Of a DNA stretch of 64,000 bases, positions 18,736-46,600 are shown one piece after another. Below the pieces are notes generated by a model, which was not told where the DNA came from, did not search any database, and saw only the letters and a list, made by a program, of their open reading frames with translations. The stretch's first letter is position 1; each line of letters opens with the position of its first letter. This DNA comes from an uncultured Candidatus Saccharibacteria bacterium. GTDB taxonomy: Bacteria > Patescibacteriota > Minisyncoccia > Phycocordibacterales > CSBR16-119. The stretch is from positions 6,411 to 70,410 of the forward strand of contig CAZBAG010000002.1 of the NCBI GenBank assembly GCA_964490365.1, given 5' to 3'. Both the position numbers and the translations under genes were made by a program.

Positions 18736-18744
18736 AAAATAAAA

Positions 18745-18772
18745 ATCCGATGCCAGGGCATCGGATTTTTAT
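18745..18772. terminator. Bidirectional terminator (atccgatgcc-agg-gcatcggat with T tract)
   Basis: 10-bp stem between convergent clpP (+) and 18773..20359 (-). Confidence 0.65.
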
Positions 18773-20359
18773 TTAGAGTTTACTTAAGTTTATTCCGTAC
18801 AAGTTCATATCGTGTTTGTTGATAAAGATGAAGTAGTCTTGCTTGTCGTTTACCATAGGACTTGTTACATCCATCTGTGCTGATGCTTTAGCACTATCAA
18901 GAATAATTTTTGAAGTATTTGTTGTTGCATCAATTTTCCATAATGCATCCATGAACAGAGACTCTCCTTTGTACCAATCATCAGGATAAAGAGCGAGTGG
19001 AACAGATGTTGGGGCTCCGCAGTATAATGTCTTGCTGTCTTTTGTCCAAGTACATTTTTCTGGAAGTGTTGTCGGAGAAAAATCAGACACCTTCCCTGTT
19101 GCGATAGTAAGTAACATTGTTTTCAGTGCGCCATTTTCATATGAACTATACAAGACCATCTTACCGTCTGGACTCACGTTTGTTGTCAGTCCATTTACGT
19201 TGGAAATAATATTCTTAAGGCTGTTGTTTTTTATATCAAGCATGTACGCATTTCCAGGATAGCGACCAGAAGCCCTTGTAGTCAGTGACACCATATTCTC
19301 AGTAATTACTTGTGGAAGAAAATCAGAGAACTTTGTATTCCAGACTCTCTTTGACTGACTTGTCTTAAAGTCATAGAGGTTCACACTCGCACCTGTTGCT
19401 TCTTTGGTCATATAGAGCGCCTTTTGACCACTTGGTAACAGTGACACGAACGATATTTTATTCGTAAGAAGAGTAGTATCGAGTGTTGCGTAGGTTCGCG
19501 CTGTTTCTGAAATGATGACAGGTTTTTTAATAGTTGCGACGAGATTCTCAACAACGTTACCTTTTAAATAACGCATAAGCACGATATTTTTTGTAGCATC
19601 AAAATACGCTTCGTACACTTTTGCAATCTGAGAACTTGTAACTCTGGCGAGTGGTTCTTCACGAGTTGTTGTTTTATCGTACACATAGCCATTTGCACGG
19701 TCAATAAAACGAACAAATTCTATTGTTTCTTTTTCAGGCGCTTTTACAACCTTTGGTTTAATACCTTGAAATTCATTTAGTTTTTTATAGGTAGTAGCTC
19801 CCACTACCCCATCTGGAGTAAGTCCATTTTTTGCCTGAAATTCAATAATTGCATTTTTAAGTGTTGTGTCAAAAGCATTATCAATAGCAAGCGCCGGTGA
19901 AGGAATTTGTCGATTGAGTACTGTCTTTATGTCGACAACTTCTTTTCTATCATCGCCAAATTTAAGCGATGGATACCCTGTAAAATCATAACCTTCAACA
20001 AGGTTTGCAGACACTTCTTCAGGAAGTTTAATTTCTCGCTCAACATACATGAACGTTGCACCAGCAACAGGCTCTTCACTTATTTTTTGCATGATTGGAG
20101 AATTTTCGTTGGCTATGAAGTCGGGGGTAATTGGTGTTTGGTCTTCACCTGTTTCTCCGTTTTCAGTAGTGCCTCCATTTGAGTTGTTTGTGCCACCAAG
20201 AGATGTGTCGTCTGAATCAATACCGAAAGGATTTTCTATATTTGTTTGTATTTGCGTTGCATCTTTTTTATTTTTTGCCCGCACAAGAATAACACCCAAA
20301 ATAACAAGTCCGATGACTAGCACTGAGATAAGTAAAATTTTAAAAAGTTTTTCTGACAT
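18773..20359 (-). CDS. Membrane-anchored protein with peptidoglycan-binding domain and TolB-like beta-propeller (start likely MSEKLF)
   Basis: N-terminal TM (LLISVLVIGLVILGVILV). PG_binding_1-like segment (NAIIEFQAKNGLTPDGVVGATTYKKL). C-terminal PD40/TolB-like repeats (SPDGKMVLYSS). Confidence 0.55.
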   Translation of the reverse strand: MSEKLFKILLISVLVIGLVILGVILVRAKNKKDATQIQTNIENPFGIDSDDTSLGGTNNSNGGTTENGETGEDQTPITPDFIANENSPIMQKISEEPVAGATFMYVEREIKLPEEVSANLVEGYDFTGYPSLKFGDDRKEVVDIKTVLNRQIPSPALAIDNAFDTTLKNAIIEFQAKNGLTPDGVVGATTYKKLNEFQGIKPKVVKAPEKETIEFVRFIDRANGYVYDKTTTREEPLARVTSSQIAKVYEAYFDATKNIVLMRYLKGNVVENLVATIKKPVIISETARTYATLDTTLLTNKISFVSLLPSGQKALYMTKEATGASVNLYDFKTSQSKRVWNTKFSDFLPQVITENMVSLTTRASGRYPGNAYMLDIKNNSLKNIISNVNGLTTNVSPDGKMVLYSSYENGALKTMLLTIATGKVSDFSPTTLPEKCTWTKDSKTLYCGAPTSVPLALYPDDWYKGESLFMDALWKIDATTNTSKIILDSAKASAQMDVTSPMVNDKQDYFIFINKHDMNLYGINLSKL

Positions 20360-20367
20360 AAAATAAT

Positions 20368-21912
20368 TTATTGAAACGTAACATGCCAATGCTGGGCAGT
20401 AGTGTTGTTTGTAGAACCGGAAGGTTCAGCATAAAAACTACCAAAACCAGGAACATTTATTGTAGCACCTCGCGGAAAATTTGAGCTTTGATTTGGTCCA
20501 CCAGGTAACGATGTAAGATACGAATTTAAGGTTAGCGTTGCTCTCATATCTACTACTTTTTTATTTGGGCCATGAGTTCTATGAAGCCATGCCTCACTCC
20601 CTCCCGTTATAACCAAATCACAGTTACATTGATTTTTAAAACTAATTATTTGAGAAATAAGATCAGAGGCTGAGCCTTCAAAATAAACAGATGTACAGCC
20701 TGATCCTCCTGCTGTTGGAGAACAGTCGTTGGGAGTATTGACAGTAACTCCAGCCGCTGCAAGCTGATTTCTTTGAGCAGTATCACTTGGCCAAGGCATT
20801 CCCTGGACAATTGGCTGACCACCAAGACTTGCAGTTGGGGCAATATTTGTACCTGGAGCAGCGTTACCATTGTTCCACTCCTCTGTTGGACCATCAAGAG
20901 AAACTGTTGGTATCTCTAGACTCAAATCTTCTGCTAAATCTGGATTTACTGTATTTAAAATAACCCAAGCACCTAATGCCAAGATGAGTCCCACAATGGC
21001 GTTAATAATATATTCTTTTGCTTGACCCTTTCCTCCAAACGACTCAGAAGTCATGTAGGTAATACCGCCAACAATAATCATAATGAGCGCAAGAAGACCC
21101 GCAATAACGATTAGTATCGTAAACAAAGATTCAAACCATTGCCCAAGGTTTAGGTCAGCTGTAAAACCAGGGAGAGGCGCCAGCGGTTCGGTTGAATATT
21201 CGCTTGGTACAACAGTATTACTTCCACCGGTACCTGGGGTAGTAACATTTACTGTTCCCGTGTCGGTTGAACATATGTTTGGAGGGCCGTACGACAACAC
21301 ATTTGGGGTAGAGCCTTGACCCTGTGGACAACCAACAACCCAATCAAAATTACATATAAAATCACATTCGTACTGTATTCCCGTAGAAGGAAGATCAAAG
21401 AGTTCTGGACTACCTTGAGCGCTTGTATTAAATATTTTTATCGACAAATTACAATCTTCAATTGTTGGAGTTGCCTCGCACGAACCAAGATTCCCTTCTT
21501 CGCCCACAATGAGCGGAATAGTAAAGTTTGAACTTGTTGTTTCAAAATGAACACTTCCTCCCTGCTGAGAGTTTGATCCTACTTGTTTCACTCGAATTCT
21601 AATATCCTGAATAGGTTCAACCTCAAATGTAGGTGCTGATGGGTTTACTGAGATATCCACATCAACATTTTGAATCAATATCCTTAAAACATTTCCAGTA
21701 GTAGTATCACAGTTCGTAGTCTGAATATCCATATAAAAATATGGCGGTGCTTCATCGTTATAGTTGTTGATTGTTGACCCTGTCGGTATTCTTGGTGTAA
21801 ACGATGTTACCTGACATGCTTCTGCAGACGAAGTACCGAAAAACAAAAAGAAGCCGAGACAAAAAGAACTTACTAAAAGAAATTGTTTGAAAAGCTTATT
21901 CATTGTTTGCAA
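20368..21912 (-). CDS. Secreted protein with central pilin-like double-TM segment (possible VirB2/TrbC-like pilin or adhesin)
   Basis: Signal peptide (LLVSSFCLGFFLFFGTSSAEA). The mid-protein has two adjacent hydrophobic helices separated by a short Gly-rich loop (LFTILIVIAGLLALIMIIVGGITY...AIVGLILALGAWVILNTV), reminiscent of TrbC/VirB2 pilins. A ~200-aa C-terminal domain has no recognised motifs. Confidence 0.45.
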   Translation of the reverse strand: MQTMNKLFKQFLLVSSFCLGFFLFFGTSSAEACQVTSFTPRIPTGSTINNYNDEAPPYFYMDIQTTNCDTTTGNVLRILIQNVDVDISVNPSAPTFEVEPIQDIRIRVKQVGSNSQQGGSVHFETTSSNFTIPLIVGEEGNLGSCEATPTIEDCNLSIKIFNTSAQGSPELFDLPSTGIQYECDFICNFDWVVGCPQGQGSTPNVLSYGPPNICSTDTGTVNVTTPGTGGSNTVVPSEYSTEPLAPLPGFTADLNLGQWFESLFTILIVIAGLLALIMIIVGGITYMTSESFGGKGQAKEYIINAIVGLILALGAWVILNTVNPDLAEDLSLEIPTVSLDGPTEEWNNGNAAPGTNIAPTASLGGQPIVQGMPWPSDTAQRNQLAAAGVTVNTPNDCSPTAGGSGCTSVYFEGSASDLISQIISFKNQCNCDLVITGGSEAWLHRTHGPNKKVVDMRATLTLNSYLTSLPGGPNQSSNFPRGATINVPGFGSFYAEPSGSTNNTTAQHWHVTFQ

Positions 21913-22864
21913 TATTTAATCGTAATATTCGTGCATTTTGCTGTAGTAACTGTGAAGTATTATTTGTACTAAAACCAACCTCAACATTTGTTATCCTATC
22001 TGCAATGGTAAGAAGAATGCTGTTTTTAACATCGGTTGGAGTAGCACGCCCGTTAAGCTTCCATTCTGTTTGAAGTGATGGATCGTTTAAACTATTGGTA
22101 AATATAAAATATGGCTCTGCAATAAGATTGATCGATCTCTTTGTAAACGTTTGATTGTTTTTAACTGCCTTGTTATACAAAGGTCCGTACGAAACATTGT
22201 ATTCATAGAAATGAATTTCGCTTGATGCTGGAGCAATAAGAATATTTCGAGCAAGAGATCTTGAAAAGCCCGTTCCGGCAACTTCAATCGTGTTTTCTTT
22301 ATCAAGAGCAGAAGACAAATACGTAAAACTATTCAGGCCGTATCCTGATTGTCCTGCAAAATTAGAACCATCTTTTCGCCATGCATAGCTGTACAAAGCG
22401 GCGTCAGGAACAAGTCCTTTGTCGTTTTTTATTTGAGGTAGTGCTACCACTTTAACCCGTGAGCCTTTAATCGGAAATACTTTTCCTTTATAGAAAGGTG
22501 GTTCGTAGCCACCAACAACCTCCCACAACACATCAATAGATGAAGGTTGTATTTTAATAGATTGCTCAACAAGCTGATTTTTTATTTTAAGTGTCGCACG
22601 TATCGTATTTCCACTATCGCCAACAACGAAGCTGTAGTTTTTCATGCCAATTCCCTTTTTATCAAGCTTTCCATCTTTATACCAAGACACTTCTACAGCG
22701 TTTATGTCGGTGTCGAAAGACGTAAGAGATAAAGAAACGCTATCACCCGTTGGTGGATACAGAGACGACGCCTGTAGCTCAAGCGACTGCGCATGAGAAA
22801 AAAGAGGTAGCGCTAAAAAAAGAAAGGTTCCACCTATAACTTTTTTTAGCAATGAAGTACTCAT
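21896..22864 (-). CDS. Secreted hypothetical protein (322 aa)
   Basis: Signal peptide (GGTFLFLALPLFSHAQS). The start of the downstream gene overlaps its 3' end, suggesting co-transcription. Confidence 0.5.
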   Translation of the reverse strand: MSTSLLKKVIGGTFLFLALPLFSHAQSLELQASSLYPPTGDSVSLSLTSFDTDINAVEVSWYKDGKLDKKGIGMKNYSFVVGDSGNTIRATLKIKNQLVEQSIKIQPSSIDVLWEVVGGYEPPFYKGKVFPIKGSRVKVVALPQIKNDKGLVPDAALYSYAWRKDGSNFAGQSGYGLNSFTYLSSALDKENTIEVAGTGFSRSLARNILIAPASSEIHFYEYNVSYGPLYNKAVKNNQTFTKRSINLIAEPYFIFTNSLNDPSLQTEWKLNGRATPTDVKNSILLTIADRITNVEVGFSTNNTSQLLQQNARILRLNIANNE

Positions 22865-22870
22865 AATAAC

Positions 22871-23509
22871 CTAAGATTTTAATTCCTCTGCAACTTCTTT
22901 TTCTATGTTTGATATTTCTCCTGTCAGAGTTTCTACTTTATGTAATTGATCTTCGATTTTTCCTTTTGAATCTTCGAGTTCTTTAATATTTTGAATTCCT
23001 TTCGCAATATCTTCTTTGACATGTTTTAGATTATCGAGTTCTTTTTGAACTTCTGTTTTTTTCAGACCAAGCTTTTCTTGGATTTTTGACAACATGCCAC
23101 GAAGACTGAAGACTTTTTCGTTTAATGATTCATTTTTTACTGGGATTGTTTGTCCAACAGTTTTTTTAAACTCTTGCTCAAGATCCGAAGCACTTGCCAT
23201 AGTTTCTGCTTGTTTTGGAGCAGGTGCCACAGGATTTGGCACTACAGGCGTTGTAGGTTTGGCGGCCGCAGCATTCATATCCATTTTTTCTTTAAGTGCG
23301 CTTAGGTCTTCTTTGTTTTCTGGTGCAACAAAATTAATACCAATATCTTTAAGATCTGCATCATCTTTTGAAGATGGTGCACTGTCTATATCGACAAATG
23401 TTTCTGTTTTTTCTTCTGTAGACGACAAATCAACCCCTGCATTGTGTAGTGTGTCCTTTTCTCCTCCTGTTATATTATTTGCTGTTTTATTATCTGTATC
23501 CATTGGCAT
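22871..23509 (-). CDS. Coiled-coil or disordered hypothetical protein (212 aa)
   Basis: Acidic, low-complexity N-terminal half and a Lys/Glu-rich heptad-like C-terminal half. It sits directly downstream of VirB4. Confidence 0.4.
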   Translation of the reverse strand: MPMDTDNKTANNITGGEKDTLHNAGVDLSSTEEKTETFVDIDSAPSSKDDADLKDIGINFVAPENKEDLSALKEKMDMNAAAAKPTTPVVPNPVAPAPKQAETMASASDLEQEFKKTVGQTIPVKNESLNEKVFSLRGMLSKIQEKLGLKKTEVQKELDNLKHVKEDIAKGIQNIKELEDSKGKIEDQLHKVETLTGEISNIEKEVAEELKS

Positions 23510-23555
23510 TATTATACCAAGAAGATTCAGAAAGAGTATTTAACTATTGTGAATA

Positions 23556-25613
23556 TTAGGCCTGTTCTTTGAACATTCGCTCAAGCTCTTCAATTTCAGC
23601 ATCAAGCCGTTTACGTTCATCTTCCATGGTTTCTGCCTCGGTTTTTGAAGTAGGAGAAGATTCTAGGGCTTCTGACACTACTTCCGCTTGTTTTTCCATG
23701 ACAGGCCCTGGTTCAACTGGCTCAGGAGACGCCTCTACAGAACTTTCGTAGGTTATAGGGTATTCTTCTTTTGCTGGCTGACTTGACCCCTCTTCTTCTT
23801 GCATATACTCGTCTTTTGCCTTTTTAATAGCAAGGATTTGAGACGGATCGGAGGTAATAATTTGATCTTCAGTATATGAGGCAATGATTTTAATGGCTAC
23901 GTGCTTAAGACCCGCAAAGAAAATTCCTTCTCCAACTTCAGATTCAAGAAGTAGGTATTTTTCTTCATCGGTTAAATTAAACACTTTTTGCAAAGCATCA
24001 GCAGAGCTTGTCGATTGCTTTAAGAGAAGTTGCATCGATGAGTTTGTAACGATCGGCATGCCGTACGGAGAGTTAATAAAATCATTTACGTCCTGAGTAA
24101 TTGTTGAAAGGCCGAGATAATATTTTCGTCCTCGTTTTGCGATCGAATACAAGAAACTCGCCGTATCCTCAGATTTCATCATCCACCACGCCTCATCAAC
24201 GATCAGTAATCGTTTTTTTAGATTTTTTCTAACCGCGTTCCAGATAAAGTGCGTAATAATATACATAGCAACAGGTTTGAGGTCGTCTTCCATGTCTCGC
24301 ACAGAGAACACAATAAATTTTCTATTAATATCAACGTTTGTTGGCTGATTCAAGAAATTTTTCCATGTTCCTTGTGTATATTTTAAAAGTCGTGTTACGA
24401 CTGACTCACTTCCCTCGAGACCAGAAAGAACCATTTCAAAATCAGAAAGAAGCGGTGGTTCAATATTTGCAAAGTCTGACTCTGCAGAAATATCTTTCAT
24501 GGCATAGGTTTCCGTAATTGCCTTATCGATCAACGCATCTTCTTCTGGTGTAAGACCGCCGAGCATAATACGAAAGAGTCCAACAAGCTGAATCGTGTTT
24601 CCTCGAAGTACATCTTCAGGTGTTTCGTCGCCTGTCGGCATTGGAAGGTCAAATGGGTTGATATGATGCTCTGAAGAAAGCGAAATATTGAAATATCGTC
24701 CACCAATCGCCTCGGCCAAATATTCGTATTCTCGTTCAGGGTCAATAACAATCACCTCTGCATCAAACATAAGCGTTCGAAGAATTTCAAGTTTTGTTGA
24801 ATATGATTTACCGGAACCAGACTTCGCAAACGTTACCGAGTTATAGTTTTCAAGAGAAAATCGATCGAAAATAATGAGCGACGAGTTGTGTCGATTCACC
24901 CCATACAAAATACCCTTGTCTGAAGATAGGTCAAACGAAACGAATGGAAACAGACTTGAAAGTGGTTCAGAATTTAATTTTTGGTGAATTGCCAGAAAGT
25001 CATTCCCTGTTGGAATCACACTGTTGAATCCAACATCTTGCTGGAACAATGCTGGCTTAATGTATACGAGCTTTGATTCGAGCATTGATTTCACTTCGCT
25101 CTCTATTTTTGAAAGCTCTTTTTCATTGTCAGCATAGAGTGTGATATACAAACCAACATCAAACATTTTTTGTTGGGCTTGTTGTAAGCTGTCTCGAAGA
25201 CTTTCAAGATCTTGATACGCTGTATCAAGCACGGGGTCGCGAACCAAACCTTTTGATTCACGAACATTGATTTGACTTTGCACTTCAGCAACTTTCTTTT
25301 GGAATTTTTTTAGAATATCTTCAGTGTTGATGTCGTGAATATGAATTGCAACATCAAAAATTTTGTCGAGGTTAATGATTGGTGTAAACCAGTTATCTGA
25401 CAAATATCGTGGATATGAGATCACGAAATATGTTCTTGTTATTTTGTCACCAAGGTTAAGATTTTTTGGCGACACCTTAAGAGCAGAAGGAGCGAGAATA
25501 TCTTGAAGCTCAAGCGTAGCCGCTTCATAAATCTCTTTCGGCAACACTGGCATGATTTCACGCTTTTTTGATCCGGTTTTATTTGATTTTAAGATAGTAT
25601 CAAGAAAACCCAT
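23556..25613 (-). CDS. virB4: VirB4/TrbE/CagE-family type IV secretion ATPase (Gram-positive/CPR type)
   Basis: Walker A TFAKSGSGKSYSTK and Walker B LLIVDEAWWMM. The N-terminal LGDKITRTYFVISYPRYLSDNWF matches the conserved D/YPRYL..GW block of TcpF/PrgJ/TraE-type VirB4. It has an acidic C-terminal tail. Confidence 0.85.
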   Translation of the reverse strand: MGFLDTILKSNKTGSKKREIMPVLPKEIYEAATLELQDILAPSALKVSPKNLNLGDKITRTYFVISYPRYLSDNWFTPIINLDKIFDVAIHIHDINTEDILKKFQKKVAEVQSQINVRESKGLVRDPVLDTAYQDLESLRDSLQQAQQKMFDVGLYITLYADNEKELSKIESEVKSMLESKLVYIKPALFQQDVGFNSVIPTGNDFLAIHQKLNSEPLSSLFPFVSFDLSSDKGILYGVNRHNSSLIIFDRFSLENYNSVTFAKSGSGKSYSTKLEILRTLMFDAEVIVIDPEREYEYLAEAIGGRYFNISLSSEHHINPFDLPMPTGDETPEDVLRGNTIQLVGLFRIMLGGLTPEEDALIDKAITETYAMKDISAESDFANIEPPLLSDFEMVLSGLEGSESVVTRLLKYTQGTWKNFLNQPTNVDINRKFIVFSVRDMEDDLKPVAMYIITHFIWNAVRKNLKKRLLIVDEAWWMMKSEDTASFLYSIAKRGRKYYLGLSTITQDVNDFINSPYGMPIVTNSSMQLLLKQSTSSADALQKVFNLTDEEKYLLLESEVGEGIFFAGLKHVAIKIIASYTEDQIITSDPSQILAIKKAKDEYMQEEEGSSQPAKEEYPITYESSVEASPEPVEPGPVMEKQAEVVSEALESSPTSKTEAETMEDERKRLDAEIEELERMFKEQA

Positions 25614-25614
25614 A

Positions 25615-26250
25615 TTATTCTTTATTAAAACTTATCTTTGATTCAGCATCTCCGGGGTTAAATACTCGGTAAAAAAGCTCAACTTCTTCGTCTGTTTTCA
25701 GTGCCACGGTTCGCACGCCGACACGAGAAAGACCCTGTTGCACAAGTGAAACTCTTTGTTCAAGTTGAGATCTATATGATTCAAATTCTGCCTTTTTATC
25801 CTTTTCAATTTTTGAGCTTGGTAAAATTTTATCAAGAAAACCACCAGAGGTTGGCAATACTGCGGGTGTATACGGAACAATGATAAAGAAGTGTTTCGTC
25901 ATAATATTTACATTATCCGTGAAGTTTTGGATAAATTGCATATATTCTTGAGTTTGTATTTTCAAAAGAGGTTCCGTCTGAATTTTCAACTTCTCTTCAA
26001 GTGTTGCTAGGTACGACGTAACATCATATTTTCGAGATTGAATTGAAATTTGCACTGAGAAATCAAGTGTATTTAGGAAGTTTTGAAACTGCATGATAAT
26101 TGCATTTTGTTCATCTTCTGACTTAAGCGAGATGTTTACCGATGACGCCATCAACACTGAACGCAATCCGCCATCTTTTAAAACAACGATTCCATCTTGA
26201 ATCTCTTTTATAGGAACAAATTCTTGTGATGCGCGTGCATTTAATGCCAT
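25615..26250 (-). CDS. T4SS-associated hypothetical protein (211 aa)
   Basis: Ends 1 nt before the virB4 start, consistent with translational coupling. It is soluble, and its N-terminus (IKEIQDGIVVLKDGGLRSVLMASSVNISLKSEDEQ) loosely resembles the VirB4 N-terminal region consensus. Confidence 0.4.
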   Translation of the reverse strand: MALNARASQEFVPIKEIQDGIVVLKDGGLRSVLMASSVNISLKSEDEQNAIIMQFQNFLNTLDFSVQISIQSRKYDVTSYLATLEEKLKIQTEPLLKIQTQEYMQFIQNFTDNVNIMTKHFFIIVPYTPAVLPTSGGFLDKILPSSKIEKDKKAEFESYRSQLEQRVSLVQQGLSRVGVRTVALKTDEEVELFYRVFNPGDAESKISFNKE

Positions 26251-26276
26251 AGAGGTAAGTATATTCTATCACACAA

Positions 26277-26696
26277 CTATTTTTGTCTTTTGTTCATATC
26301 CAATACATCGAGACTCCATGATATGTCTTTTAATTTACTTTCGGTAAGCCGAGGCAAATTATCCGAAGAAGTGGGGTTCAGCGATGCACGACTTGGTAAG
26401 ACTTTTTCTTTCTTTGGAGCTCGTTGTCGCCAAATAAAAAGTTTACTTCTGAAAAAATAGACGAATGATGATTGAAGAACTTCTGAAAATTCTCGGCCAT
26501 TTACTTTGTAAAATGTGAGAAGGAGTGCAAGTCCAACAATAACAAGTATCGCTGGGATAGCAATAAGGATAGGCAGTGTTTTATAAAACACATATCCCCC
26601 ACCAGCGCCACCTAAAAGATAGATGAATTGTTTAAAGGTAAAAGGACCAAAAATTTTATCTTCTATTTCAATAAATTGTGGAACTTGGAATCGCAT
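26277..26696 (-). CDS. PrgI-family (VirB3-like) small membrane protein
   Basis: N-terminal MRFQVPQFIEIEDKIFGPFTFKQFIYLLGGAGGGYVFY matches the hallmark start of PrgI/TcpE-like proteins. Two TM helices follow. Confidence 0.6.
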   Translation of the reverse strand: MRFQVPQFIEIEDKIFGPFTFKQFIYLLGGAGGGYVFYKTLPILIAIPAILVIVGLALLLTFYKVNGREFSEVLQSSFVYFFRSKLFIWRQRAPKKEKVLPSRASLNPTSSDNLPRLTESKLKDISWSLDVLDMNKRQK

Positions 26697-26749
26697 GTCT
26701 TTATTATAAATCAGGAAGTAGTAAGTAAAAAGTAGGAAGTAGTGAGTAA

Positions 26750-27097
26750 CTATTTATTAACGAAATAGTTAAGAAGCTTCATGGTTTCATTAAGAAGGGT
26801 ATCTGTCTTTGAAAAATCAAATTTCTTTGTTAATTTCAATCGTTTAATAATCTCTATTTGTGTTTCAAGCTCAGCACCAGAACCAAAAGCAATGAGTAAG
26901 AATTGCTTAAATGATTTACTTGAATTTATTCTAAATCCCTCTGCAATATTTGATGGAATGGATACTGACGCTCTTGTTATTTGTGATGATAAACCAAATT
27001 TTTCTTCAGAGGGTAATTGTTTTACAAGTTTGTAAATCTCCTCAACAAGACTCATAGATTTTTGCCATACAATGAGATCTTTATGTCCGTTTTTCAT
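26750..27097 (-). CDS. Four-helix-bundle protein (23S rRNA intervening-sequence protein family)
   Basis: 115 aa. DLIVWQKSMSLVEEIYKLVKQLPSEEKFGLSSQITRASVSIPSNIAEG is characteristic of this family. Confidence 0.6.
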   Translation of the reverse strand: MKNGHKDLIVWQKSMSLVEEIYKLVKQLPSEEKFGLSSQITRASVSIPSNIAEGFRINSSKSFKQFLLIAFGSGAELETQIEIIKRLKLTKKFDFSKTDTLLNETMKLLNYFVNK

Positions 27098-27139
27098 AAA
27101 GTTTTTACTTACTACTCTCTACTCACTACTTTTTACTTG

Positions 27140-27733
27140 CTATTCTATTGGTTCACGGTATGGATCAAAAGCAACTTTTGGCATAGTAACCACATTATCT
27201 TTCACTTGTTGTTCGGGAACACTGACTGGTGGTTTTTCTGGTTCTGGAGGAGGAACAGCCACTACTAACTTTTCCTGTGTTGGTTTTTGAGTATCCACCA
27301 TAGTAATAAGGGGTTTTTTGTCAGTTCGTGGAACATAGTTATCCTCCAATTCAACACCAGCATGGTGAAGTTCGTCTTTTTCTTCATCGGCCATAATTTC
27401 TCCTGCACTTACCTTTTCATAGTGCACTTTCAGAGCATCACGAATCTTTGAAAACAGTCGATTGTTTATTTCGTCAACAATATTCATGAGTTCGTCATCG
27501 TTTAAACCAATTCTTTTTTGAATATTGTCGGGAAAGTGTTTTGGGTGTTCAAGTCCGATCATGGTTAAGATTGTTTCAACAGACAAGATATCGATGTCAT
27601 CGATATGCATTTTATGTTCACGACCAATGTTGAACACTGTTCTCTCCCAATCAGAAAGCTTAATAGCCTCAGCAACTTCTGCTGGAATTTTATGCATTTG
27701 ATCGGCTATTAACTTTTTTTGATTGTCATCCAT
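27140..27733 (-). CDS. Hypothetical protein (197 aa), part of the T4SS-like locus
   Basis: Soluble, with a Pro/Glu-rich C-terminus. Its start is 3 nt from the stop of the VirB6-like gene. Confidence 0.4.
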   Translation of the reverse strand: MDDNQKKLIADQMHKIPAEVAEAIKLSDWERTVFNIGREHKMHIDDIDILSVETILTMIGLEHPKHFPDNIQKRIGLNDDELMNIVDEINNRLFSKIRDALKVHYEKVSAGEIMADEEKDELHHAGVELEDNYVPRTDKKPLITMVDTQKPTQEKLVVAVPPPEPEKPPVSVPEQQVKDNVVTMPKVAFDPYREPIE

Positions 27734-27736
27734 ATA

Positions 27737-29911
27737 TTATTTTCCACCTTCATCTTTCTTTTCCTCCTTTGGTTTTTCGTCTTTTTTCTCTTCTTTTGGT
27801 TTTTCGTCTTTCTCTTTAGATTCTGATTCTTGTTCTTCTTTTACAAATGCTAGCGCCGCCTCTGCTGCCTTTTCCTTTTTACTCTTTTCTTTTGAAAGTC
27901 CTCTTATCTTTTCAGCAGTCTGTTTTGCATTACCGGTTGCAAGATCGTACGGATTAAACACTCCTTTTATCCAACCATCTTCAACTTCTCGAGCATATTC
28001 AAATTGTCTTCGCTTAGTTTCATCCTTAACGATTGCATCCTTATTGTTAAGTTCTTTTTTCTTTTTAATATCATTGTCAATTTCAGAAATTTTTTCATCT
28101 TTTTCTTTTTTAGCCTTTTCAAGATCTGCCTTAAGTGTTACCTCTTCATCTCTCTCTCTCTGACTCATGGCACCGAAACCTGCTTTAGATTTTTTACCAA
28201 GTTCTTCTAGTCGTTTAGATATTGTTTCTGTGTTTGTCTTGAAACCACTCTCAACGGCGTTTCTATTTTCTTCTAAAGCATTTATTTCTTTAGTAATTTC
28301 TCCTTGGCGTTGTTTAACAAGCGTATCTTTCTCTCCGGAACGCACAGTTCCTAATTCTTTAGCGAGTTCAACACGACGTTTTTCAGCAGACTCTTCATAT
28401 TTCTTTCTGCTCTGATCACTACCCTTACCAGCGTTAAAATCTTTGCCACCAAAACCAGTCATGCCGTACCCAAGACCAGTTCCAACCACTCCTGAAATCT
28501 TACCTGCTAAACCTTTTGCCTTTGATGCATTTCTAATATCCAAACTGCTTTCATTTACTTTCTTAAGTGCACTTCTTTGAACCATAAGCTGCCATTTGTT
28601 TAGACCTTTTGCATCAGCAATTCTTTTTTCATAATTACCAGTCTCAAGGGCACCACCTGCAAACCGTCCCACAGTTGCTCTTCCCACAAAAGCGGTTGCA
28701 CCGAGTGCCGCGCCACCAACAAACCCAAGTGCTTTTCCAACAAAACTTTTAACCATGCCGCCAAATTCACCCGCCATACTATCTGCTGTTTTTTTAGCAA
28801 CTTGCAGGAGTGTGATAATAAATAGGAATGGGATAAACACTTTCATAAGAGCCACAAACATACTTGAGCCCTCTGCAGGAGCTAATGATTCACCTGTTCC
28901 TAGAATTGAGAGGAATGAAATAGTTAAGTAGAGAAAGAAAATAAACACAGGCGCAAGAAACGCAAGTTTGATCACATTGTCTTTCCATGAATCGAAGCTC
29001 AGTTGCTTGAAGAACCCACCACTACCTGGAACAGCAAGCGTAATAAACGCAATTGGAGAGAAGATCATGGCAAACCAAAGACCAATTACTCGACCAATAA
29101 AAGTGAGAGAGACAGATAAAAACGTCCACGCTAACACAAGGTTAACAACTGTCATTAAAATAAATATGAGGAAAATTGTACCTGTGTTTCCAGATATATC
29201 TGGGGTGACTGTTCCTTGAAACTGACCTGTCGTCTGATCAATGGAACCAATTTGCCCGCCCGCACCAGATTCAAAAAGTGCCGTGCTTAATAAATTCTGA
29301 GGATTAATCTTGTCGACAATACCATAGGTGATTGATTTGTAACCTTCAACATCTTCGTATGTTGTATCATTTTCAATAACAATACTGTTGTAGAATGCTC
29401 TGGCAAGAATATTACCAGCATCAATAACAACTTTAGTAAAAAAGAGACTGAAGTTAAGAAGCAAAGCAACGATAATAAGCGTTGGAATATATTTTTTAGA
29501 ACTTGATCCTAAAATATGTTTTATCGCAAGATAGAGAAGTGTAAAAATAAATGCAATATTTGAAATATCCCTAATCAAACCCCAGCCTTTCACAATAAAG
29601 TCTGATCGGTAGGCATTTGAATCAAGACTGTAACCAAGGAAGAAGTCGAGAAGCTGAGCAACGAGCCCAACTAAACCAAAGCTGGGTTGCAAAATAACGT
29701 TATAAAAAGCATAGAGGAGACAATTTGCACTAAATGGATTAGATAGTCCTGAACAATTTTGATCTACAGCATTTTCAATACCTGTATTAACAGAGAGAGC
29801 TGAAGGCGTAGTTGTTTGTGCGTGCACAAAAGAGACCGGAGAAACGAAGTATCCACTAAAAACAACGAATATTGAAGCCGTCAAAATTGCTATTTTTTTC
29901 ATTACACGCAC
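27737..29911 (-). CDS. VirB6/TrbL-like polytopic membrane protein with charged coiled-coil C-terminal tail (724 aa)
   Basis: Signal peptide plus at least 6 TM helices across the first ~400 aa. The C-terminal ~300 aa are Lys/Glu-rich and end in a KEKDEKPKEEKKDE tandem repeat. The size and topology are typical of VirB6-like channel subunits in minimal T4SS loci. Confidence 0.55.
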   Translation of the reverse strand: MRVMKKIAILTASIFVVFSGYFVSPVSFVHAQTTTPSALSVNTGIENAVDQNCSGLSNPFSANCLLYAFYNVILQPSFGLVGLVAQLLDFFLGYSLDSNAYRSDFIVKGWGLIRDISNIAFIFTLLYLAIKHILGSSSKKYIPTLIIVALLLNFSLFFTKVVIDAGNILARAFYNSIVIENDTTYEDVEGYKSITYGIVDKINPQNLLSTALFESGAGGQIGSIDQTTGQFQGTVTPDISGNTGTIFLIFILMTVVNLVLAWTFLSVSLTFIGRVIGLWFAMIFSPIAFITLAVPGSGGFFKQLSFDSWKDNVIKLAFLAPVFIFFLYLTISFLSILGTGESLAPAEGSSMFVALMKVFIPFLFIITLLQVAKKTADSMAGEFGGMVKSFVGKALGFVGGAALGATAFVGRATVGRFAGGALETGNYEKRIADAKGLNKWQLMVQRSALKKVNESSLDIRNASKAKGLAGKISGVVGTGLGYGMTGFGGKDFNAGKGSDQSRKKYEESAEKRRVELAKELGTVRSGEKDTLVKQRQGEITKEINALEENRNAVESGFKTNTETISKRLEELGKKSKAGFGAMSQRERDEEVTLKADLEKAKKEKDEKISEIDNDIKKKKELNNKDAIVKDETKRRQFEYAREVEDGWIKGVFNPYDLATGNAKQTAEKIRGLSKEKSKKEKAAEAALAFVKEEQESESKEKDEKPKEEKKDEKPKEEKKDEGGK

Positions 29912-29969
29912 ATAAAATGCACTATGAAGAAATTATATCATTCTTCTTGAAAACGATATGTGCAAATCC

Positions 29970-32309
29970 CTAGAAAAGAGACTGGAGAGCGTCGGCAAAA
30001 GTTTGTGTACTTGTTGTCGGCACCGTAATGTTTTGACCGTTAAAGTCTGAAAGATCAATTTGTCCAGCGTCATCGCCAAAACTCATGTTATTGAGGTAGT
30101 AGTTTGGATTCGGTCCTGGTGTTGGGATTTGTCCAAATGATGGGTTTTGAGAAATTGATGGGAATGGATAGGTGGTTCGTTCGTTGAGTCCAGGATAGCC
30201 ACTTGCTGTAACCTCTTGAATACATTGACCAATATAGTTGTTTACCGCAAAAATCTGAGATTCATAATTTAAAATATCCTGAGCCAACTGACTTAATTGT
30301 GATTGGTTCACCAAAACACCTTGATTAGCAACTTGAGCCAAAAGCGATGAGATAGTCTGCATTTCTGGACTACTTGTATTAGCCTGCTGAGCCGGTGTAA
30401 GAGCGTTTAACTGACTTTGAATAAGCTGAAGTTGTGGCATAACAGACATGAGGCCAGTAATTTGACCCTGAAGCGTCGTAATGCGGTTAGTGAGAGTATC
30501 TAACTGTAGATAGAGATTTGTGGCAATTGGACGAACGGTTGGGGGAGTGCCGACAAGCGGATATGCTGCGAACATTGCATCTCGATACTTTCCAAACGTG
30601 AAGTTCATAAACGACATAAACTGTTCGTAGTTAGGAACAACAGCATCTGCAATGTTGATACCCGTAATAGACTGCACTTGGTCACCATAGTACGCGTTTG
30701 TTTGACCTGGTAAAACACTGCTCAAAGCATTTTGTAAATATACCTGGCCGTCTTCATACCATGCTGGATTTGGTCCCGGTATACAGTAATCAAGTGTTTG
30801 AATATCTCTAATAAGGGTTGTAATAGAAGTAATAGCTTCAGAAGCTTCAAGTAGGTAATTTTGTTGCACCATAACCAAACCTGGGTCAGTTGGACTTCCG
30901 TTCACTGCCGTAGTAACTGGTGTTTGTTGAGAGCCTGCACCAAAACCAGGATTATTATTTTGTGCCCATACAGGGTTATAGTTTGGATCATTAGGATTTG
31001 AACTGTACTGACTACCTGTTTGATAGAGCGATCGCAGACCTCCTGCCACACTCTTAAAGAGCTGTGCTGCCAATGCATCAAAAATAAGTCCGAGATTTTC
31101 GTTTAACTCATCGCCAAGTTCAAGATTACGAAGCGGAGAGCCCAATACCTGTGTGGTTTGTTCTGCAAGAAGTCGTCCTGGTGTTACGGTGGTCCATTGA
31201 ACACAAGTACTTCGTTTAACAATATTATTATACTCAAGCGCTTGAGCATCTGTACCATTTTGAGCATCAAGATAATCTCTTACCGCTTGAGGTAATCCTT
31301 CGTACACTGTCTGGGTCATGGTTTGGCCAGCTGGAATAAGTGGGTAATTCCCCAGGTGAAGTGGATTTGTTGGATCAATATAATCATCACCTGAGGTGTA
31401 GAAGCTATCGCTCAGTGCAGTTCGTGCACATTCTCGTTGGTTTAAAAAACCGGCACCTTCGTTAAGCTCTGCTTGGAAATTTTTCGCAATCGTAATGTTA
31501 GTGCCTGCGGTTTGACGCGCTAAATAACTATTTGCCATCAAATAGTTACCGAATACGTTGTTGTTTGGTTGTGCAAATGCAGTGTATCCCGCCCATCCAC
31601 CAACACTAAATCTCGCTTGGAAGTTTGAATAGCTCGCATATTGATTATTATGTTGTAATACTTGATTCAAAGAAAAACGGAGATTGTCTTGCAATCTGTT
31701 TTGAACAGTAAGGAGAATTGTTTCTGAAATAATTTGTCCAAAAGGATAATCTTCTGGGTTTGCAGAAAACCAGCTTGTAAAGCTGAGCACTTCATCTTTT
31801 GCAATTTGTTCAAAGAAGTTTGGTCTATCTTCTGGATAAAATGGATTTCCTTGGAAACCACTATTAATCCATTCAACAGTCATAAGGGTAATTTTGTCGA
31901 TAACTTTGAGCACTGCGTAACGAGCGATGGCGTCTAGACATTGTTCTTTTTTGTTATTATCCTTTACCTCATCTCGAGTTGCGCTTGTATTAGCTCGAGT
32001 ACCGCGATCTTTTGTCGGAACAGCAGTGGCATCACTTGCTGCAATAGCAGCAGCTTCCGCAGCACCTGCTGGATCAGTAACATCGCCACCAAAACCAAGT
32101 GCATTTCCAATAGCATTAAGACCGTCAGAAATAAGCCCTGGTAAATCAATACAGCTTGCAGCCACAGCGCCAACACCTTGAATATTAAAACCTCCACTTG
32201 CATTTCCGGCACCAGCAACTTGAGCAGAGGCAGTTTGTGGAAGTAGTGGAAATGAAACAAGAAAGAGGATAAAAAACGAAAGTATAACGTTTTTAAAAAA
32301 GTAGTTCAT
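29970..32309 (-). CDS. Large secreted hypothetical protein (779 aa)
   Basis: Signal peptide (ILSFFILFLVSFPLLPQTASAQ). Gln/Asn-rich with no catalytic motifs. Confidence 0.5.
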   Translation of the reverse strand: MNYFFKNVILSFFILFLVSFPLLPQTASAQVAGAGNASGGFNIQGVGAVAASCIDLPGLISDGLNAIGNALGFGGDVTDPAGAAEAAAIAASDATAVPTKDRGTRANTSATRDEVKDNNKKEQCLDAIARYAVLKVIDKITLMTVEWINSGFQGNPFYPEDRPNFFEQIAKDEVLSFTSWFSANPEDYPFGQIISETILLTVQNRLQDNLRFSLNQVLQHNNQYASYSNFQARFSVGGWAGYTAFAQPNNNVFGNYLMANSYLARQTAGTNITIAKNFQAELNEGAGFLNQRECARTALSDSFYTSGDDYIDPTNPLHLGNYPLIPAGQTMTQTVYEGLPQAVRDYLDAQNGTDAQALEYNNIVKRSTCVQWTTVTPGRLLAEQTTQVLGSPLRNLELGDELNENLGLIFDALAAQLFKSVAGGLRSLYQTGSQYSSNPNDPNYNPVWAQNNNPGFGAGSQQTPVTTAVNGSPTDPGLVMVQQNYLLEASEAITSITTLIRDIQTLDYCIPGPNPAWYEDGQVYLQNALSSVLPGQTNAYYGDQVQSITGINIADAVVPNYEQFMSFMNFTFGKYRDAMFAAYPLVGTPPTVRPIATNLYLQLDTLTNRITTLQGQITGLMSVMPQLQLIQSQLNALTPAQQANTSSPEMQTISSLLAQVANQGVLVNQSQLSQLAQDILNYESQIFAVNNYIGQCIQEVTASGYPGLNERTTYPFPSISQNPSFGQIPTPGPNPNYYLNNMSFGDDAGQIDLSDFNGQNITVPTTSTQTFADALQSLF

Positions 32310-32317
32310 AATCGCGC

Positions 32318-33211
32318 TTACTGTAGTATACCATTTTGAGAAAAATAAGAAGCCAATGTCCCCAAGGCACTATCAATATTATTTGAATATTCGTTGTATT
32401 TACTCAAGTACGTAGTTACTTTGAGCGGATCGTTGTTAATGTTTCTTGACTCAACAAGAATTTTAGAAAGTTTATCGATATTATTAAGCAAAAATAGATG
32501 TCCACCCGATGCACCATATGGTACATCCATACGAACAAGTCCGTCAATCAACTTGCTATATGAAAGATGAATATTTGATATTTTTTCAATAGTTGCTGTA
32601 TCCTCTGGATTTTGAATAACCAGAGCAAGTGTTTCAAGTTCTGGAATACCCTTATGTGGCAGTGAATTATAGAGGGTTTTAAAAGAGGTATAGTATAAAT
32701 CAGCTGAAATAGGAGATAATTTTAAATCTGAGAGTGCATACGTGTCTTTAAGATTGAAGTTCACGATTGACTGATCAACTCCTGACGAAAACTGACCAAT
32801 TGTTTCCTGGTTAAATGCACCACCTTGATTTAAAACTGCGGCCGTTGTAAAAAACTGTTTTGCAAACACTTCTGTTTCGTTTGATGAATCTGGTTTGTAT
32901 GTTTCATCAAAATCACTTTCTTTTCTTTTATTTTCGACAAATTTTTTATCGTCTACTCCGTCACCATCAGTATCTTTGAGTGCTGGGTTGGTGCTCCAAA
33001 GCGCCTCTTCCCAATCATAGAGACCATCGCTGTCGGTATCTTTTGAAAAAAAATCAGTGCTTGCAGATGCAGAAGCAACTTCATCTGAAGAATCATTGTT
33101 CCATGTTGTTTTGTTATTTAAGAGTTTGCCCCCAAAGAAAATAACAAGTCCGACTACTGCAGTTACAAGGATTATCCTTACAAATTGTTTACTTGGTAAA
33201 TAGTTTTGCAT
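32318..33211 (-). CDS. Membrane-anchored protein with thrombospondin-type-3-like calcium-binding repeats
   Basis: N-terminal TM (IILVTAVVGLVIFFGG). Repeated DxDxDG motifs (DTDSDGLYDWEE, DTDGDGVDD). Confidence 0.5.
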   Translation of the reverse strand: MQNYLPSKQFVRIILVTAVVGLVIFFGGKLLNNKTTWNNDSSDEVASASASTDFFSKDTDSDGLYDWEEALWSTNPALKDTDGDGVDDKKFVENKRKESDFDETYKPDSSNETEVFAKQFFTTAAVLNQGGAFNQETIGQFSSGVDQSIVNFNLKDTYALSDLKLSPISADLYYTSFKTLYNSLPHKGIPELETLALVIQNPEDTATIEKISNIHLSYSKLIDGLVRMDVPYGASGGHLFLLNNIDKLSKILVESRNINNDPLKVTTYLSKYNEYSNNIDSALGTLASYFSQNGILQ

Positions 33212-33214
33212 ATT

Positions 33215-33607
33215 TTATTGAGCAACCTTTACAGATGTTCCGTGTAAAAAGGTCCGGAAACCAGATACTGGAGCCGGCGGAGCTGATTGTGTGGCACATT
33301 CTGGTATTGGTATAGGGTTATAAAGACCTAATATCCAGGCCCCTGGTACTAGTTGATAGTTGAGTGATATTGGATGATAGTCGCCCACAAAAGGTCCAAC
33401 TACCGATGGGGTGTTCGGTGCTAGCATAAATGGACTTCCAGGCTGTCGACCAGCGGGGCAACTTATTCCTGGGGTTGGAGCTGTAATAATTTTTCCACCA
33501 AACGGTTGAAGTATCGAGATTTGTGCAAAAGCCGTGTTTACGAATAACACAAACATAAGAATGGAGCTTAGAAATATGACTTTCTTCATAGGATTATTAT
33601 ATACCAA
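33215..33607 (-). CDS. Small secreted hypothetical protein (130 aa)
   Basis: Signal peptide (VIFLSSILMFVLFVNTAFAQ) and a Pro/Gly-rich mature region. Confidence 0.45.
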   Translation of the reverse strand: MVYNNPMKKVIFLSSILMFVLFVNTAFAQISILQPFGGKIITAPTPGISCPAGRQPGSPFMLAPNTPSVVGPFVGDYHPISLNYQLVPGAWILGLYNPIPIPECATQSAPPAPVSGFRTFLHGTSVKVAQ

Positions 33608-34405: not shown

Positions 34406-34533
34406 CCCGTTAGAGACCGCAGTCAAATAGTGATAAACTTACTATACGTAACAAATACATAAAGATAGTATATCGTTAATCTACGATAATGTCTCGGGCG
34501 ACTGAGACCTGTCTCTAACGGGATTCATGTATA

Positions 34534-36486: not shown

Positions 36487-36510
36487 AAAGCTCTCGGTCG
36501 AGAGCTTTTT
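36483..36510 (-). terminator. Terminator of the giant-protein gene (agctctc-ggtc-gagagct, T tract in minus sense)
   Basis: Hairpin flanked by an A tract and a T tract, lying between the giant-protein stop (36517) and the uvrD start (36486). Confidence 0.5.
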
Positions 36511-36516
36511 GTAGAG

Positions 36517-43605: not shown

Positions 43606-43633
43606 AACGCTCTCAGTTGAGAGCGTTTTTTAT
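43606..43633. terminator. Bidirectional terminator (aacgctctc-agtt-gagagcgtt with T tract)
   Basis: 9-bp stem between convergent genes, flanked by A and T tracts. Confidence 0.65.
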
Positions 43634-46528: not shown

Positions 46529-46600
46529 AGAAATAGTTTACCATACGTTGTTTGTTTTAAGAGAAAGAAAAAGCCCGCTTGCAATTGCAAACAGGCTTCG

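Follow-up and report, generated by a model that had tools for sequence, protein, structure and literature searches.

Is an array of conjugation-type genes in a genome from the candidate phyla radiation (CPR) a mobile element, or is it a chromosomal apparatus for dealing with a host cell? The question is raised by positions 18773–33607 (minus strand) of a 64,000-nt stretch of contig CAZBAG010000002.1 (assembly GCA_964490365.1); this stretch is the whole DNA analysed here and is called the window, and all positions are those of the window. The array comprises 13 co-directional open reading frames (ORFs) with an operon-like spacing of −22 to +58 nt. A preliminary description, made from the DNA letters, had listed 12 of them, all of which are present on the minus strand, and had left out a 197-aa ORF (27140–27733). 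It had proposed a chromosomal, non-conjugative apparatus resembling a type IV secretion system (T4SS), of the kind reported in CPR bacteria, and our analysis agrees.

With a probability of roughly 0.8, the region is a chromosomal, vertically inherited T4SS of Paceibacteria (Parcubacteria/OD1-type CPR) that belongs to the MPF_FATA-derived Patescibacteria VirB4 clade, has the CTn2/CD1110 type as its nearest relative and serves exchange with a host rather than conjugation. Conserved synteny, housekeeping flanks and a match to the published description of such loci, including the adjacency of ksgA, carry this reading. Systems of this type are already known and widespread in CPR/Patescibacteria, and the locus is not new in kind. 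It stands out by a single trait, the fusion of a pilin-like membrane hairpin with a swappable domain that is probably a cell-wall enzyme. The preliminary term 'minimal' applies in a relative sense, since ten genes of the array are conserved.

VirB4 motor and its partners

Three adjacent genes encode the part of the array that is most readily assigned:

23556–25613, minus strand: VirB4-family ATPase of 685 aa without an N-terminal domain of its own (NCBIfam and Pfam profiles)
25615–26250, minus strand: TrsD-like protein of 211 aa, a homologue of the VirB4 N-terminal domain that is encoded separately
26277–26696, minus strand: PrgI/VirB3-like protein with two transmembrane (TM) segments (PF12666, 38.2 bits against a cut-off of 27)

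The preliminary assignments of VirB4 and PrgI both hold under profile search, with scores above the curated cut-offs. VirB4 matches the NCBIfam model NF045971 (CD1110 family) over profile positions 183–733 with 377.8 bits (cut-off 325) and P-loop_TraG (PF19044) with 93.9 bits, and its translation contains Walker A (GSGKS), Walker B (LLIVDEAW) and the YPRYL block that had been pointed out before. Its acidic, Pro/Glu/Ser-rich C-terminal tail of ~75 aa (aa ~610–685; 23556–23810) is variable; the closest relatives keep it, and most Paceibacteria orthologues (~608 aa) are without it. The small ORF previously described as coupled is present and was identified as the TrsD homologue. Its stop codon lies 1 nt before the virB4 start. 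It matches VirB4_plasma, the NCBIfam model of Mycoplasma VirB4, at positions 103–233 (E = 1.6e-11), the CD1110 model at positions 2–118 and TrsD NF041427 (E = 2.7e-5), all of them below the curated whole-protein cut-offs; PF26593 (TraC-like) is on record for an identical protein. Because the VirB4 match begins at model position 183 and the TrsD-like ORF covers the missing N-terminal domain, VirB4 is split here as in the TrsD/TrsE pair of pGO1. PrgI would be the membrane anchor for VirB4, which is the motor of the system.

Conserved gene order in Paceibacteria

VirB4 has >8000 relatives in the database, the best of which are named Paceibacterota or Nomurabacteria. We compared 81 related loci ORF by ORF with BLAST: 80 from a scan of one genome per species, and one from a complete Nomurabacteria genome. 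VirB4 is 72–81% identical in the 80 Paceibacteria species genomes. Ten conserved genes occur in the fixed order [uvrD-ksgA]-297-779-724-197-PrgI-TrsD-VirB4-(variable)-322-pilin-538, where numbers are protein lengths in the window, and this order recurs in loci of Nomura-, Kaiser-, Campbell- and Taylorbacteria. Homologues are most frequent for TrsD and the 322-aa protein (80 of 81 loci each), PrgI (76), the pilin-like protein (72) and the 538-aa protein (70), followed by the 724-aa (63), 197-aa (54), 779-aa (43) and 297-aa (34) proteins; the 130-aa protein and a coiled-coil protein have homologues in three loci each. Many loci end early on the upstream side, hence the lower of these counts are underestimates. 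ksgA was found in 28 related loci, and there the cluster lies downstream of uvrD-ksgA. Since 81 related loci keep the same order, the cluster is far beyond chance.

Conservation is graded among the proteins. Median identity across these loci is 77% for VirB4, 58% for TrsD, 47% for PrgI and 27–38% for the extracytoplasmic proteins; in the same loci it is 48% for KsgA and 56% for UvrD. VirB4 is more conserved than either neighbour, so the motor is more constrained than the adjacent housekeeping genes while the surface parts diverge fast.

Chromosomal setting and tests for mobility

The array is bounded by the following features:

33632–34426, minus strand: ksgA (Pfam), conserved upstream neighbour
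34534–36486, minus strand: uvrD/pcrA (Pfam), conserved neighbour 5' of ksgA
18737–18774, minus strand: terminator-like hairpin with a 17-bp stem and a T-run (terminator scan), at the array end and common to the convergent clpP
36483–36512, minus strand: terminator-like hairpin with a 13-bp stem and a T-run (terminator scan), preceding uvrD and following an upstream gene of 1934 aa

The ksgA stop codon is 24 nt from the first cluster gene. The two long hairpins flank uvrD-ksgA together with the entire T4SS array, which suggests a single transcription unit of ~17.7 kb, or a unit with no strong internal terminator; ksgA and uvrD may thus be co-transcribed with the cluster. A scan for consensus promoters stayed at background (49 found, 47.7 expected) and was not used. 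The G+C content of the cluster is 0.35–0.41, the same as that of its flanks. Directly upstream of uvrD, the 1934-aa gene (36517–42321, minus strand) ends at a strong terminator; its product is highly charged and of low complexity, has a weak SAP match as its only domain signal, and has a homologue in none of the 81 related loci.

Housekeeping genes flank the array: ClpP is encoded beyond its last gene, KsgA and UvrD before its first. Outside the array, the window further encodes PGK, TIM, NusA, pyrophosphatase, trigger factor, ClpP, an M23/LysM peptidase, YifB/ComM, a DksA-like protein, PNPase, CCA-adding enzyme, RNase Y, YidC and six tRNAs. YidC (63347–63937, minus strand) lies at the right window edge with RNase Y nearby, and the cumulative GC skew keeps falling from one end of the window to the other. 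A replication origin not far past the right window end would fit this, a placement that has been reported for Paceibacteria T4SS loci.

We scanned all window ORFs of at least 400 aa and all but four of those of at least 110 aa, 35 of them outside the cluster. Pfam and NCBIfam profiles found no relaxase and no coupling-protein family (VirD4/TcpA) among them. BLAST and HMM searches that started from plasmid proteins of related systems, namely four VirD4 proteins of the CD1115 type and one MOBP relaxase, matched none of the window ORFs and no ORF of the 81 related loci, as far as these were fetched. The sole integrase-family gene (51326–52252) encodes a Xer-type recombinase (XerD model 255 bits, XerC 250) and lies 18 kb from the cluster, with PNPase, tRNAs and other housekeeping genes in between. 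The preliminary statement that the cluster contains no relaxase, VirD4 or integrase is therefore correct, and it extends to the ORFs scanned in the window apart from this Xer-type gene; neither of the outcomes that the description had named as refuting its reading occurred.

The hairpin fusion protein

The gene in the pilin position encodes a three-part protein:

20368–21912, minus strand: VirB2-like pilin hairpin fusion, an ORF of 514 aa (511 aa when counted from its likely ATG, 21903)

It matches T4SS_pilin (PF18895) at aa 258–321 with 33.3 bits (cut-off 26.6). The same profile matches 35 of 36 positional homologues, and matches to TrbC (PF04956) are weak. An AlphaFold2 (AF2) model of the whole protein, built from 34 sequences, has a mean pLDDT of 81. 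It consists of a signal helix, a Cys-rich Ig-like beta-sandwich (aa 33–225, pLDDT 85–93), a two-helix TM hairpin (aa 256–322) formed by helices 256–291 and 295–322 with a basic loop between them, and a compact globular C-terminal domain (aa 340–514, pLDDT > 90 in the whole-protein model). By the positive-inside rule, the domains on either side of the hairpin should both be extracytoplasmic. The double-TM hairpin of the preliminary description is thus supported by profile and model, but the protein that carries it is a fusion of three parts with a probable cell-wall enzyme domain at its end. A Foldseek search with the whole model returned antibody/Ig-like matches only, stemming from the N-terminal domain, and a PDB profile search with the family alignment gave nothing useful.

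Fusions of this type are common in the relatives, where most hairpin proteins are ~300–770 aa long: of 78 pilin-like ORFs in this slot, 65 are extended at the C-terminus by 100 aa or more. When the 66 extensions of 90 aa or more were clustered together with that of the window, 19 sequence clusters resulted, and Pfam assigned NlpC/P60, VanY, Peptidase_M15_4, YkuD, SLT, SLT_2, 3D, Amidase_2, Amidase_5 and CHAP domains among them. At least ten peptidoglycan-enzyme families and several unannotated ones therefore occupy the C-terminal slot in relatives. Exchange is visible at short distance. The window protein is 63% identical to the relative P0158 from the signal peptide to aa ~346, where homology ends; beyond this point P0158 has an NlpC/P60-like domain and the window protein a domain of its own. 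The two closest genome loci, L004 and L005 (VirB4 80–81% identical), have the same N-terminal domain but an NlpC/P60 domain at the C-terminus. These breaks in homology indicate exchange of the catalytic domain among close relatives, with a fixed joint as the breakpoint. In five loci (L011, L057, L063, L071, L077), two hairpin-enzyme genes with differing C-terminal domains flank or follow the 538-aa gene; in L071 one of these domains is unknown and the other is Amidase_2. One system can thus carry more than one such 'warhead'. We found no mention of a hairpin-enzyme fusion in the searchable literature, which is not proof that it is undescribed.

The C-terminal domain of the window protein represents an unannotated family. 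A word-indexed search with the domain alone gave two proteins, and a profile query and an exhaustive phmmer search were needed to find more. Among 1.84 billion representatives, phmmer assigned 526 clusters (50% identity) to the family at E ≤ 1e-3. A pilin hairpin lies just upstream of the domain in 138 of the 150 best representatives, and most of the others are fragments. Across 98 diverse members of the family, nine residues never vary (C397, C406, T407, E440, H444, H447, D455, H508 and H510). H447-x7-D455 followed by H508-W-H510 (H508-x-H510) reproduces, in order, the zinc-ligand pattern of LAS (M15/M23/Hedgehog) enzymes.

Modelled alone with AF2, the domain reached a pLDDT of 92.4 and a pTM of 0.88. 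Foldseek searches of this model against PDB and BFVD gave nothing at E ≤ 0.001; LAS enzymes recur among the weak matches (Sonic hedgehog, MepA, LdcB and a phage 'Peptidase M15A'). In hhalign, none of the VanY, M15_4, NlpC/P60, YkuD and SLT clusters of the sister loci aligned significantly with the family. The sole local match, to a VanY-type cluster, placed the H..G..VD segment on S-x-H-x-x-G-x-A-x-D at a non-significant P of 0.007, and the family profile had no significant match among PDB sequences. From its context, the domain is likely to be a cell-wall enzyme. The order of its invariant residues makes a LAS-type peptidase a plausible hypothesis.

Another potential wall enzyme is encoded ~9 kb upstream of the cluster: a divergent gene at 42472–43602 (plus strand) specifies a secreted protein with LysM and Peptidase_M23 domains, which could act with the T4SS or independently.

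Type IV pili and type II secretion were considered as identities for the array and rejected. Pfam and NCBIfam detected no PilB/PilT ATPase, PilC or class III prepilin in the cluster proteins, and the 'pilin' is a VirB2/TrbC-type hairpin.

The polytopic protein at the VirB6 position

Upstream of the motor genes, the array encodes a large membrane protein:

27737–29911, minus strand: polytopic membrane protein of 724 aa with a signal peptide, ~8 TM segments and a charged tail

The tail is 294 aa long and 44% charged. The gene lies directly upstream of the 197-aa gene, PrgI, TrsD and VirB4 (63 of 81 loci), and the topology of its product resembles that of 'extended VirB6' proteins, which have ~8 TM segments and a long hydrophilic tail (PMC12857230). 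Homology is another matter. Scans of 38 family members one by one gave no match to Pfam TrbL/VirB6, the window protein has no NCBIfam match (including CD1112), a family-profile search of PDB found none, and hhalign against four plasmid CD1112-type VirB6 proteins gave a probability of 1.3%. Its one link beyond its own family is weak similarity to a 779-aa protein on a Pontibacillus megaplasmid (24% identity over 182 aa, hhalign probability 41%). The preliminary label 'VirB6-like' therefore fits the polytopic architecture, the long charged tail and the position, and finds no counterpart in Pfam, NCBIfam, PDB or hhalign comparisons; it rests on position and topology. The protein probably works like VirB6, as a presumed subunit of the translocon.

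Secreted, anchored and soluble proteins

The remaining eight ORFs of the array, in order of transcription, are:

33215–33607, minus strand: small secreted protein, ORF of 130 aa with a hydrophobic N-terminus (likely start M7, giving a classical signal peptide)
32318–33211, minus strand: N-terminally anchored protein of 297 aa (TM aa 13–31) with a C-terminal helical domain
29970–32309, minus strand: secreted protein of 779 aa and unknown fold (signal peptide)
27140–27733, minus strand: soluble protein of 197 aa without TM segments, missed by the preliminary description
26750–27097, minus strand: four-helix-bundle protein of the 23S rRNA intervening-sequence type (23S_rRNA_IVP, PF05635, 128.7 bits)
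22871–23509, minus strand: low-complexity/coiled-coil protein of 212 aa without TM segments, in a variable slot
21896–22864, minus strand: secreted protein of 322 aa with three related, beta-rich repeats of ~100 aa and a W-x-x-[DN]-G motif
18773–20389, minus strand: N-terminally anchored protein, ORF of 538 aa (528 aa from the likely start at 20359; TM aa 18–36), last gene of the array

The 297-aa and 779-aa proteins are conserved accessory subunits. In the 297-aa protein, a DxDxDG-type Ca-binding repeat spans aa ~55–90. The profile of its 31 homologues matches the Ca-binding region of Bap (E = 8e-5), in line with the Ca-binding repeat protein announced in the preliminary description, and NCBIfam gives weak thrombospondin-type-3-like matches. 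The 779-aa protein has a conserved W-I-N-x-G-F motif, conserved Cys residues and a coiled-coil-like C-terminal part, and no Pfam, NCBIfam or PDB sequence match. The 197-aa protein has two conserved parts, a helical domain at its N-terminus and a D-P-Y-R-E motif at its C-terminus; it is probably a cytoplasmic partner and had no PDB, Pfam or NCBIfam match. The 322-aa protein is among the most widely retained accessory subunits; W61, W162 and W268 are invariant, its repeats align with one another at hhalign probabilities of 83–94%, and searches of PDB, Pfam and NCBIfam found no match.

The 538-aa ORF contains PG_binding_1 (PF01471, 41 bits, aa 149–204) and a C-terminal domain of ~320 aa with weak propeller signals (TolB TIGR02800, E = 8.6e-5; PD40, E = 0.021); a PDB profile search with the family alignment gave nothing useful. 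The earlier reading of this gene as a peptidoglycan-binding, TolB-like propeller protein is thus supported, for the propeller by weak signals. In the orthologue at this position, the peptidoglycan-binding segment is confined to close relatives, being found besides the window in L004 and L005 only, and the C-terminal domain occurs in 70 of 81 loci.

Three genes are not among the ten conserved ones. The 130-aa ORF, first after ksgA, has homologues in 3 of 81 loci and no Pfam or NCBIfam match, and is a lineage-specific accessory gene. The 212-aa protein likewise has homologues in 3 of 81 loci, with unrelated ORFs or none in the same slot elsewhere, and gave spurious weak Pfam matches only. The four-helix-bundle gene exists as described before, but as a 23S-rRNA-IVP gene that is a sporadic insert with cassette-like behaviour and not a core T4SS component. 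It is absent from L004 and L005, the closest relatives in the genome collection, and lies inside the cluster in 14 of 81 loci (L024, L032, L035, L037, L045, L049–L051, L059, L072, L073, L075, L078 and L079). It is always co-directional and occupies four different slots (197|PrgI, the commonest, 779|724, PrgI|TrsD and TrsD|VirB4); two loci hold two copies.

Comparison with known systems

Quinonero-Coronel et al. 2025 (PMC12102498) described a Patescibacteria-specific VirB4 clade related to MPF_FATA, with TrsD as the commonest associated gene and PrgI/VirB3, VirB6 and VirB2-like pilins near virB4. In that survey there were almost no relaxases, homologues of the type IV coupling protein (T4CP) were rarely linked, VirB8-like proteins were rare in Patescibacteria, and ksgA and replication genes were frequent near virB4 in Paceibacteria. 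The locus in the window resembles these systems in its chromosomal location, its CPR-clade VirB4 with a separate TrsD-like gene directly upstream, its PrgI/VirB3 protein, the large polytopic protein at the VirB6 position, the PF18895 pilin-like protein, the nearby ksgA and the lack of a relaxase or coupling protein in cis. Reviews call the function of these T4SSs 'completely unknown' and list effector delivery or nucleic-acid acquisition as proposals (PMC12857230, PMC11665869).

Epibiotic growth of the Saccharibacterium S. epibionticum depends on its T4SS genes (SEML1_0006–0019), which Wang et al. 2023 (PMC10633639) showed to be essential. That locus differs: its pilins are small, stand-alone proteins, encoded as an array of six on the opposite strand, and its lysozyme/glucosaminidase is a protein of its own, whereas the window has one pilin-like gene, located downstream of virB4 and fused to Ig-like and enzyme-like domains, and extra conserved genes specific to Paceibacteria (297, 779, 197, 322 and 538 aa).

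Outside the CPR, tblastn of VirB4 against plasmids gave identities that were all <35%; the closest (28–34%) were mostly CD1110-family proteins of Firmicutes and Actinobacteria. Their loci have the order VirD4(CD1115)-x-VirB6(CD1112)-PrgI-x-VirB4-x-hydrolase, the hydrolase being of the SLT, NlpC/P60 or M23 type. MPF_FATA systems of the CTn2/CD1110 type (C. botulinum pCDC3875, C. perfringens and Brevibacillus plasmids) share with the window the VirB4 family, PrgI, the order membrane protein-PrgI-x-VirB4-x-cell-wall hydrolase, and a monoderm design without VirB7, VirB9 and VirB10. They differ in carrying, on plasmids, a VirD4-like T4CP (CD1115), DUF3801 and a relaxase, in having VirB4 as one polypeptide of ~780–950 aa that is 28–31% identical to that of the window, and in their VirB6, a 260-aa protein of the CD1112 family. 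The split of VirB4 into a TrsD-like protein and a ~620-aa ATPase is shared with TrsD and TrsE of pGO1/pSK41.

The closest layout is that of the Pontibacillus megaplasmid NZ_CP062975, with a pilin-like protein of the Mbov_0395 family, a VirB6 slot occupied by its own 779-aa protein, a TrsD-like protein (29% identical to that of the window) and a split VirB4 of 621 aa (31%). There, however, the pilin-like protein is small (151 aa) and unfused, and the hydrolase is a separate M23 protein of 1050 aa encoded after virB4.

The hairpin protein combines traits of two groups. PrgK (pCF10), TraG (pIP501) and CwlT (ICEBs1), whose roles we take from literature cited in PMC12102498, are likewise membrane-anchored modular peptidoglycan enzymes encoded near virB4, and their catalytic families (SLT, NlpC/P60/CHAP, M23/LAS-type) are those fused to the hairpin in Paceibacteria relatives. 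The anchor in the window is a VirB2/TrbC-type hairpin after a secreted Ig-like domain, not a single N-terminal TM helix, and there is one catalytic domain per protein, swapped among close relatives; that of the window is itself unannotated. With the VirB2/TrbC pilins of diderms the protein shares a signal peptide and two hydrophobic helices with a short basic loop. Mature VirB2/TrbC pilins, however, have ~70–120 aa, and the window protein has 511 aa, with ~220 aa before the hairpin and ~190 after it. Its polymerisation into a pilus is sterically doubtful.

Function and alternative explanations

In a T4SS for host exchange, the ATP-driven channel through the membrane would consist of VirB4 with TrsD, docked on PrgI and on the polytopic 724-aa protein. 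At or around this channel, the hairpin protein would expose both flanking domains outside the cell, and its C-terminal enzyme domain would open peptidoglycan, the cell's own or the host's, like the VirB1/PrgK/CwlT-type hydrolases in conjugation. The 297-aa, 779-aa, 322-aa and 538-aa proteins would make up an extracellular part that contacts the wall or the host cell. Such a system would most likely move macromolecules, either proteins or nucleic acid as a nutrient, between epibiont and host, and not plasmids.

Several points weigh against this reading. VirB6 homology of the 724-aa protein is undetectable by each of the four approaches used, no cluster protein has a Pfam or NCBIfam match to VirB8/PrgL/TcpC, and neither sequence nor fold searches gave the C-terminal domain of the hairpin protein a significant match among hydrolases. 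Genes for a relaxase or coupling protein could lie beyond the 64-kb window. We know of no Paceibacteria T4SS that has been studied experimentally, so the ideas on substrate, direction and host contact are carried over from a Saccharibacterium with a differently arranged locus.

The best-surviving alternative is a ComB-like DNA-uptake machine, with VirB4 working in the import direction, that brings in host or environmental DNA as a source of nucleotides or for transformation. Such a machine needs neither relaxase nor T4CP, and none was found in the window. DNA-processing genes are close by, namely the adjacent uvrD, a ComM/YifB-like ATPase (43630–45129) and, in the Nomurabacteria genome L003, recJ and comEC within 10 kb of the locus. 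The idea has also been raised in the literature, and comF, recG and radA adjoin T4SS genes in the class ABY1 (PMC11665869, PMC12102498). However, uvrD-ksgA are ordinary housekeeping genes whose linkage may only reflect chromosomal position, and no cluster protein resembles a DNA-binding or DNA-translocating component. In S. epibionticum, moreover, cells that have lost comEC are no longer competent but still viable; the T4SS, by contrast, is essential (summarised in PMC12857230). We consider DNA uptake unlikely.

Slightly less probable still is that the downstream half of the array (the 322-aa, hairpin-enzyme and 538-aa genes) is a module for maintenance of the cell's own wall that is merely co-located with the T4SS, with the hairpin as an anchor and not a pilin. 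Some of the fused domains are indeed non-lytic (the YkuD L,D-transpeptidase and a VanY-type carboxypeptidase), CPR genomes keep few wall-remodelling enzymes, and a large hairpin protein is hard to pack into a VirB2-type helical filament. Yet these genes stay directly after virB4 in 70–80 of 81 loci, the position in which the conjugative relatives have a dedicated T4SS hydrolase. The PF18895/TrbC hairpin is a T4SS-specific module, and the C-terminal domain of the window type occurs almost only on such hairpins (138 of 150 representatives).

An integrative conjugative element or plasmid transfer region, intact or decayed, is largely refuted and very improbable. In its favour, VirB4, PrgI, TrsD and the pilin-like protein are all of conjugation-type families, conjugative or mobilizable plasmids carry the best relatives outside the CPR, and the window has a tyrosine recombinase gene. 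Against it, the housekeeping genes on either side of the locus are the same in many lineages of Paceibacteria, its VirB4 is more conserved than KsgA and UvrD, its G+C content is unremarkable, searches of the window and of the related loci as fetched gave neither relaxase nor T4CP, and the recombinase is Xer-type and 18 kb off, with PNPase and tRNA genes in between.

The swappable enzyme domain on a VirB2-like hairpin and, with it, the unannotated domain family are worth following up. CPR bacteria have few conserved envelope machines, T4SS genes among them, and in the one species tested these genes are essential for growth on the host. Tentatively, the VirB2-like subunit of Paceibacteria could be a modular carrier composed of an Ig-like domain, a hairpin and an extracellular enzyme that is exchanged at a fixed breakpoint close behind the hairpin, with that of the window as a possible new LAS-like peptidase family. 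If the T4SS presents its enzymes to the host wall, their fast exchange would follow the chemistry of that wall and would be one of the factors that determine host range; if the window's C-terminal domain acts on host peptidoglycan, the T4SS would be linked directly to the breaching of the host wall and to host specificity. With its ten conserved genes, unusually constrained VirB4 and fast-evolving surface parts, the locus is a clean, fully syntenic reference for Paceibacteria.

Other features of the window

Three further observations concern genes away from the array. ARAGORN called a tRNA-Tyr with anticodon ATA at 46600–46674 (minus strand), with U33-AUA-A37 in a 7-nt loop. Its variable loop of 5 nt is unlike that of bacterial class II tRNA-Tyr, and it is either a wrong identity call or an unusual A34 tRNA. 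A 564-aa protein (2281–3975, plus strand) carries a Por_Secre_tail domain, a C-terminal sorting domain of the T9SS type that is unexpected for a monoderm CPR bacterium. A 984-aa protein (6908–9862, minus strand) contains a Gly_rich_2 domain.

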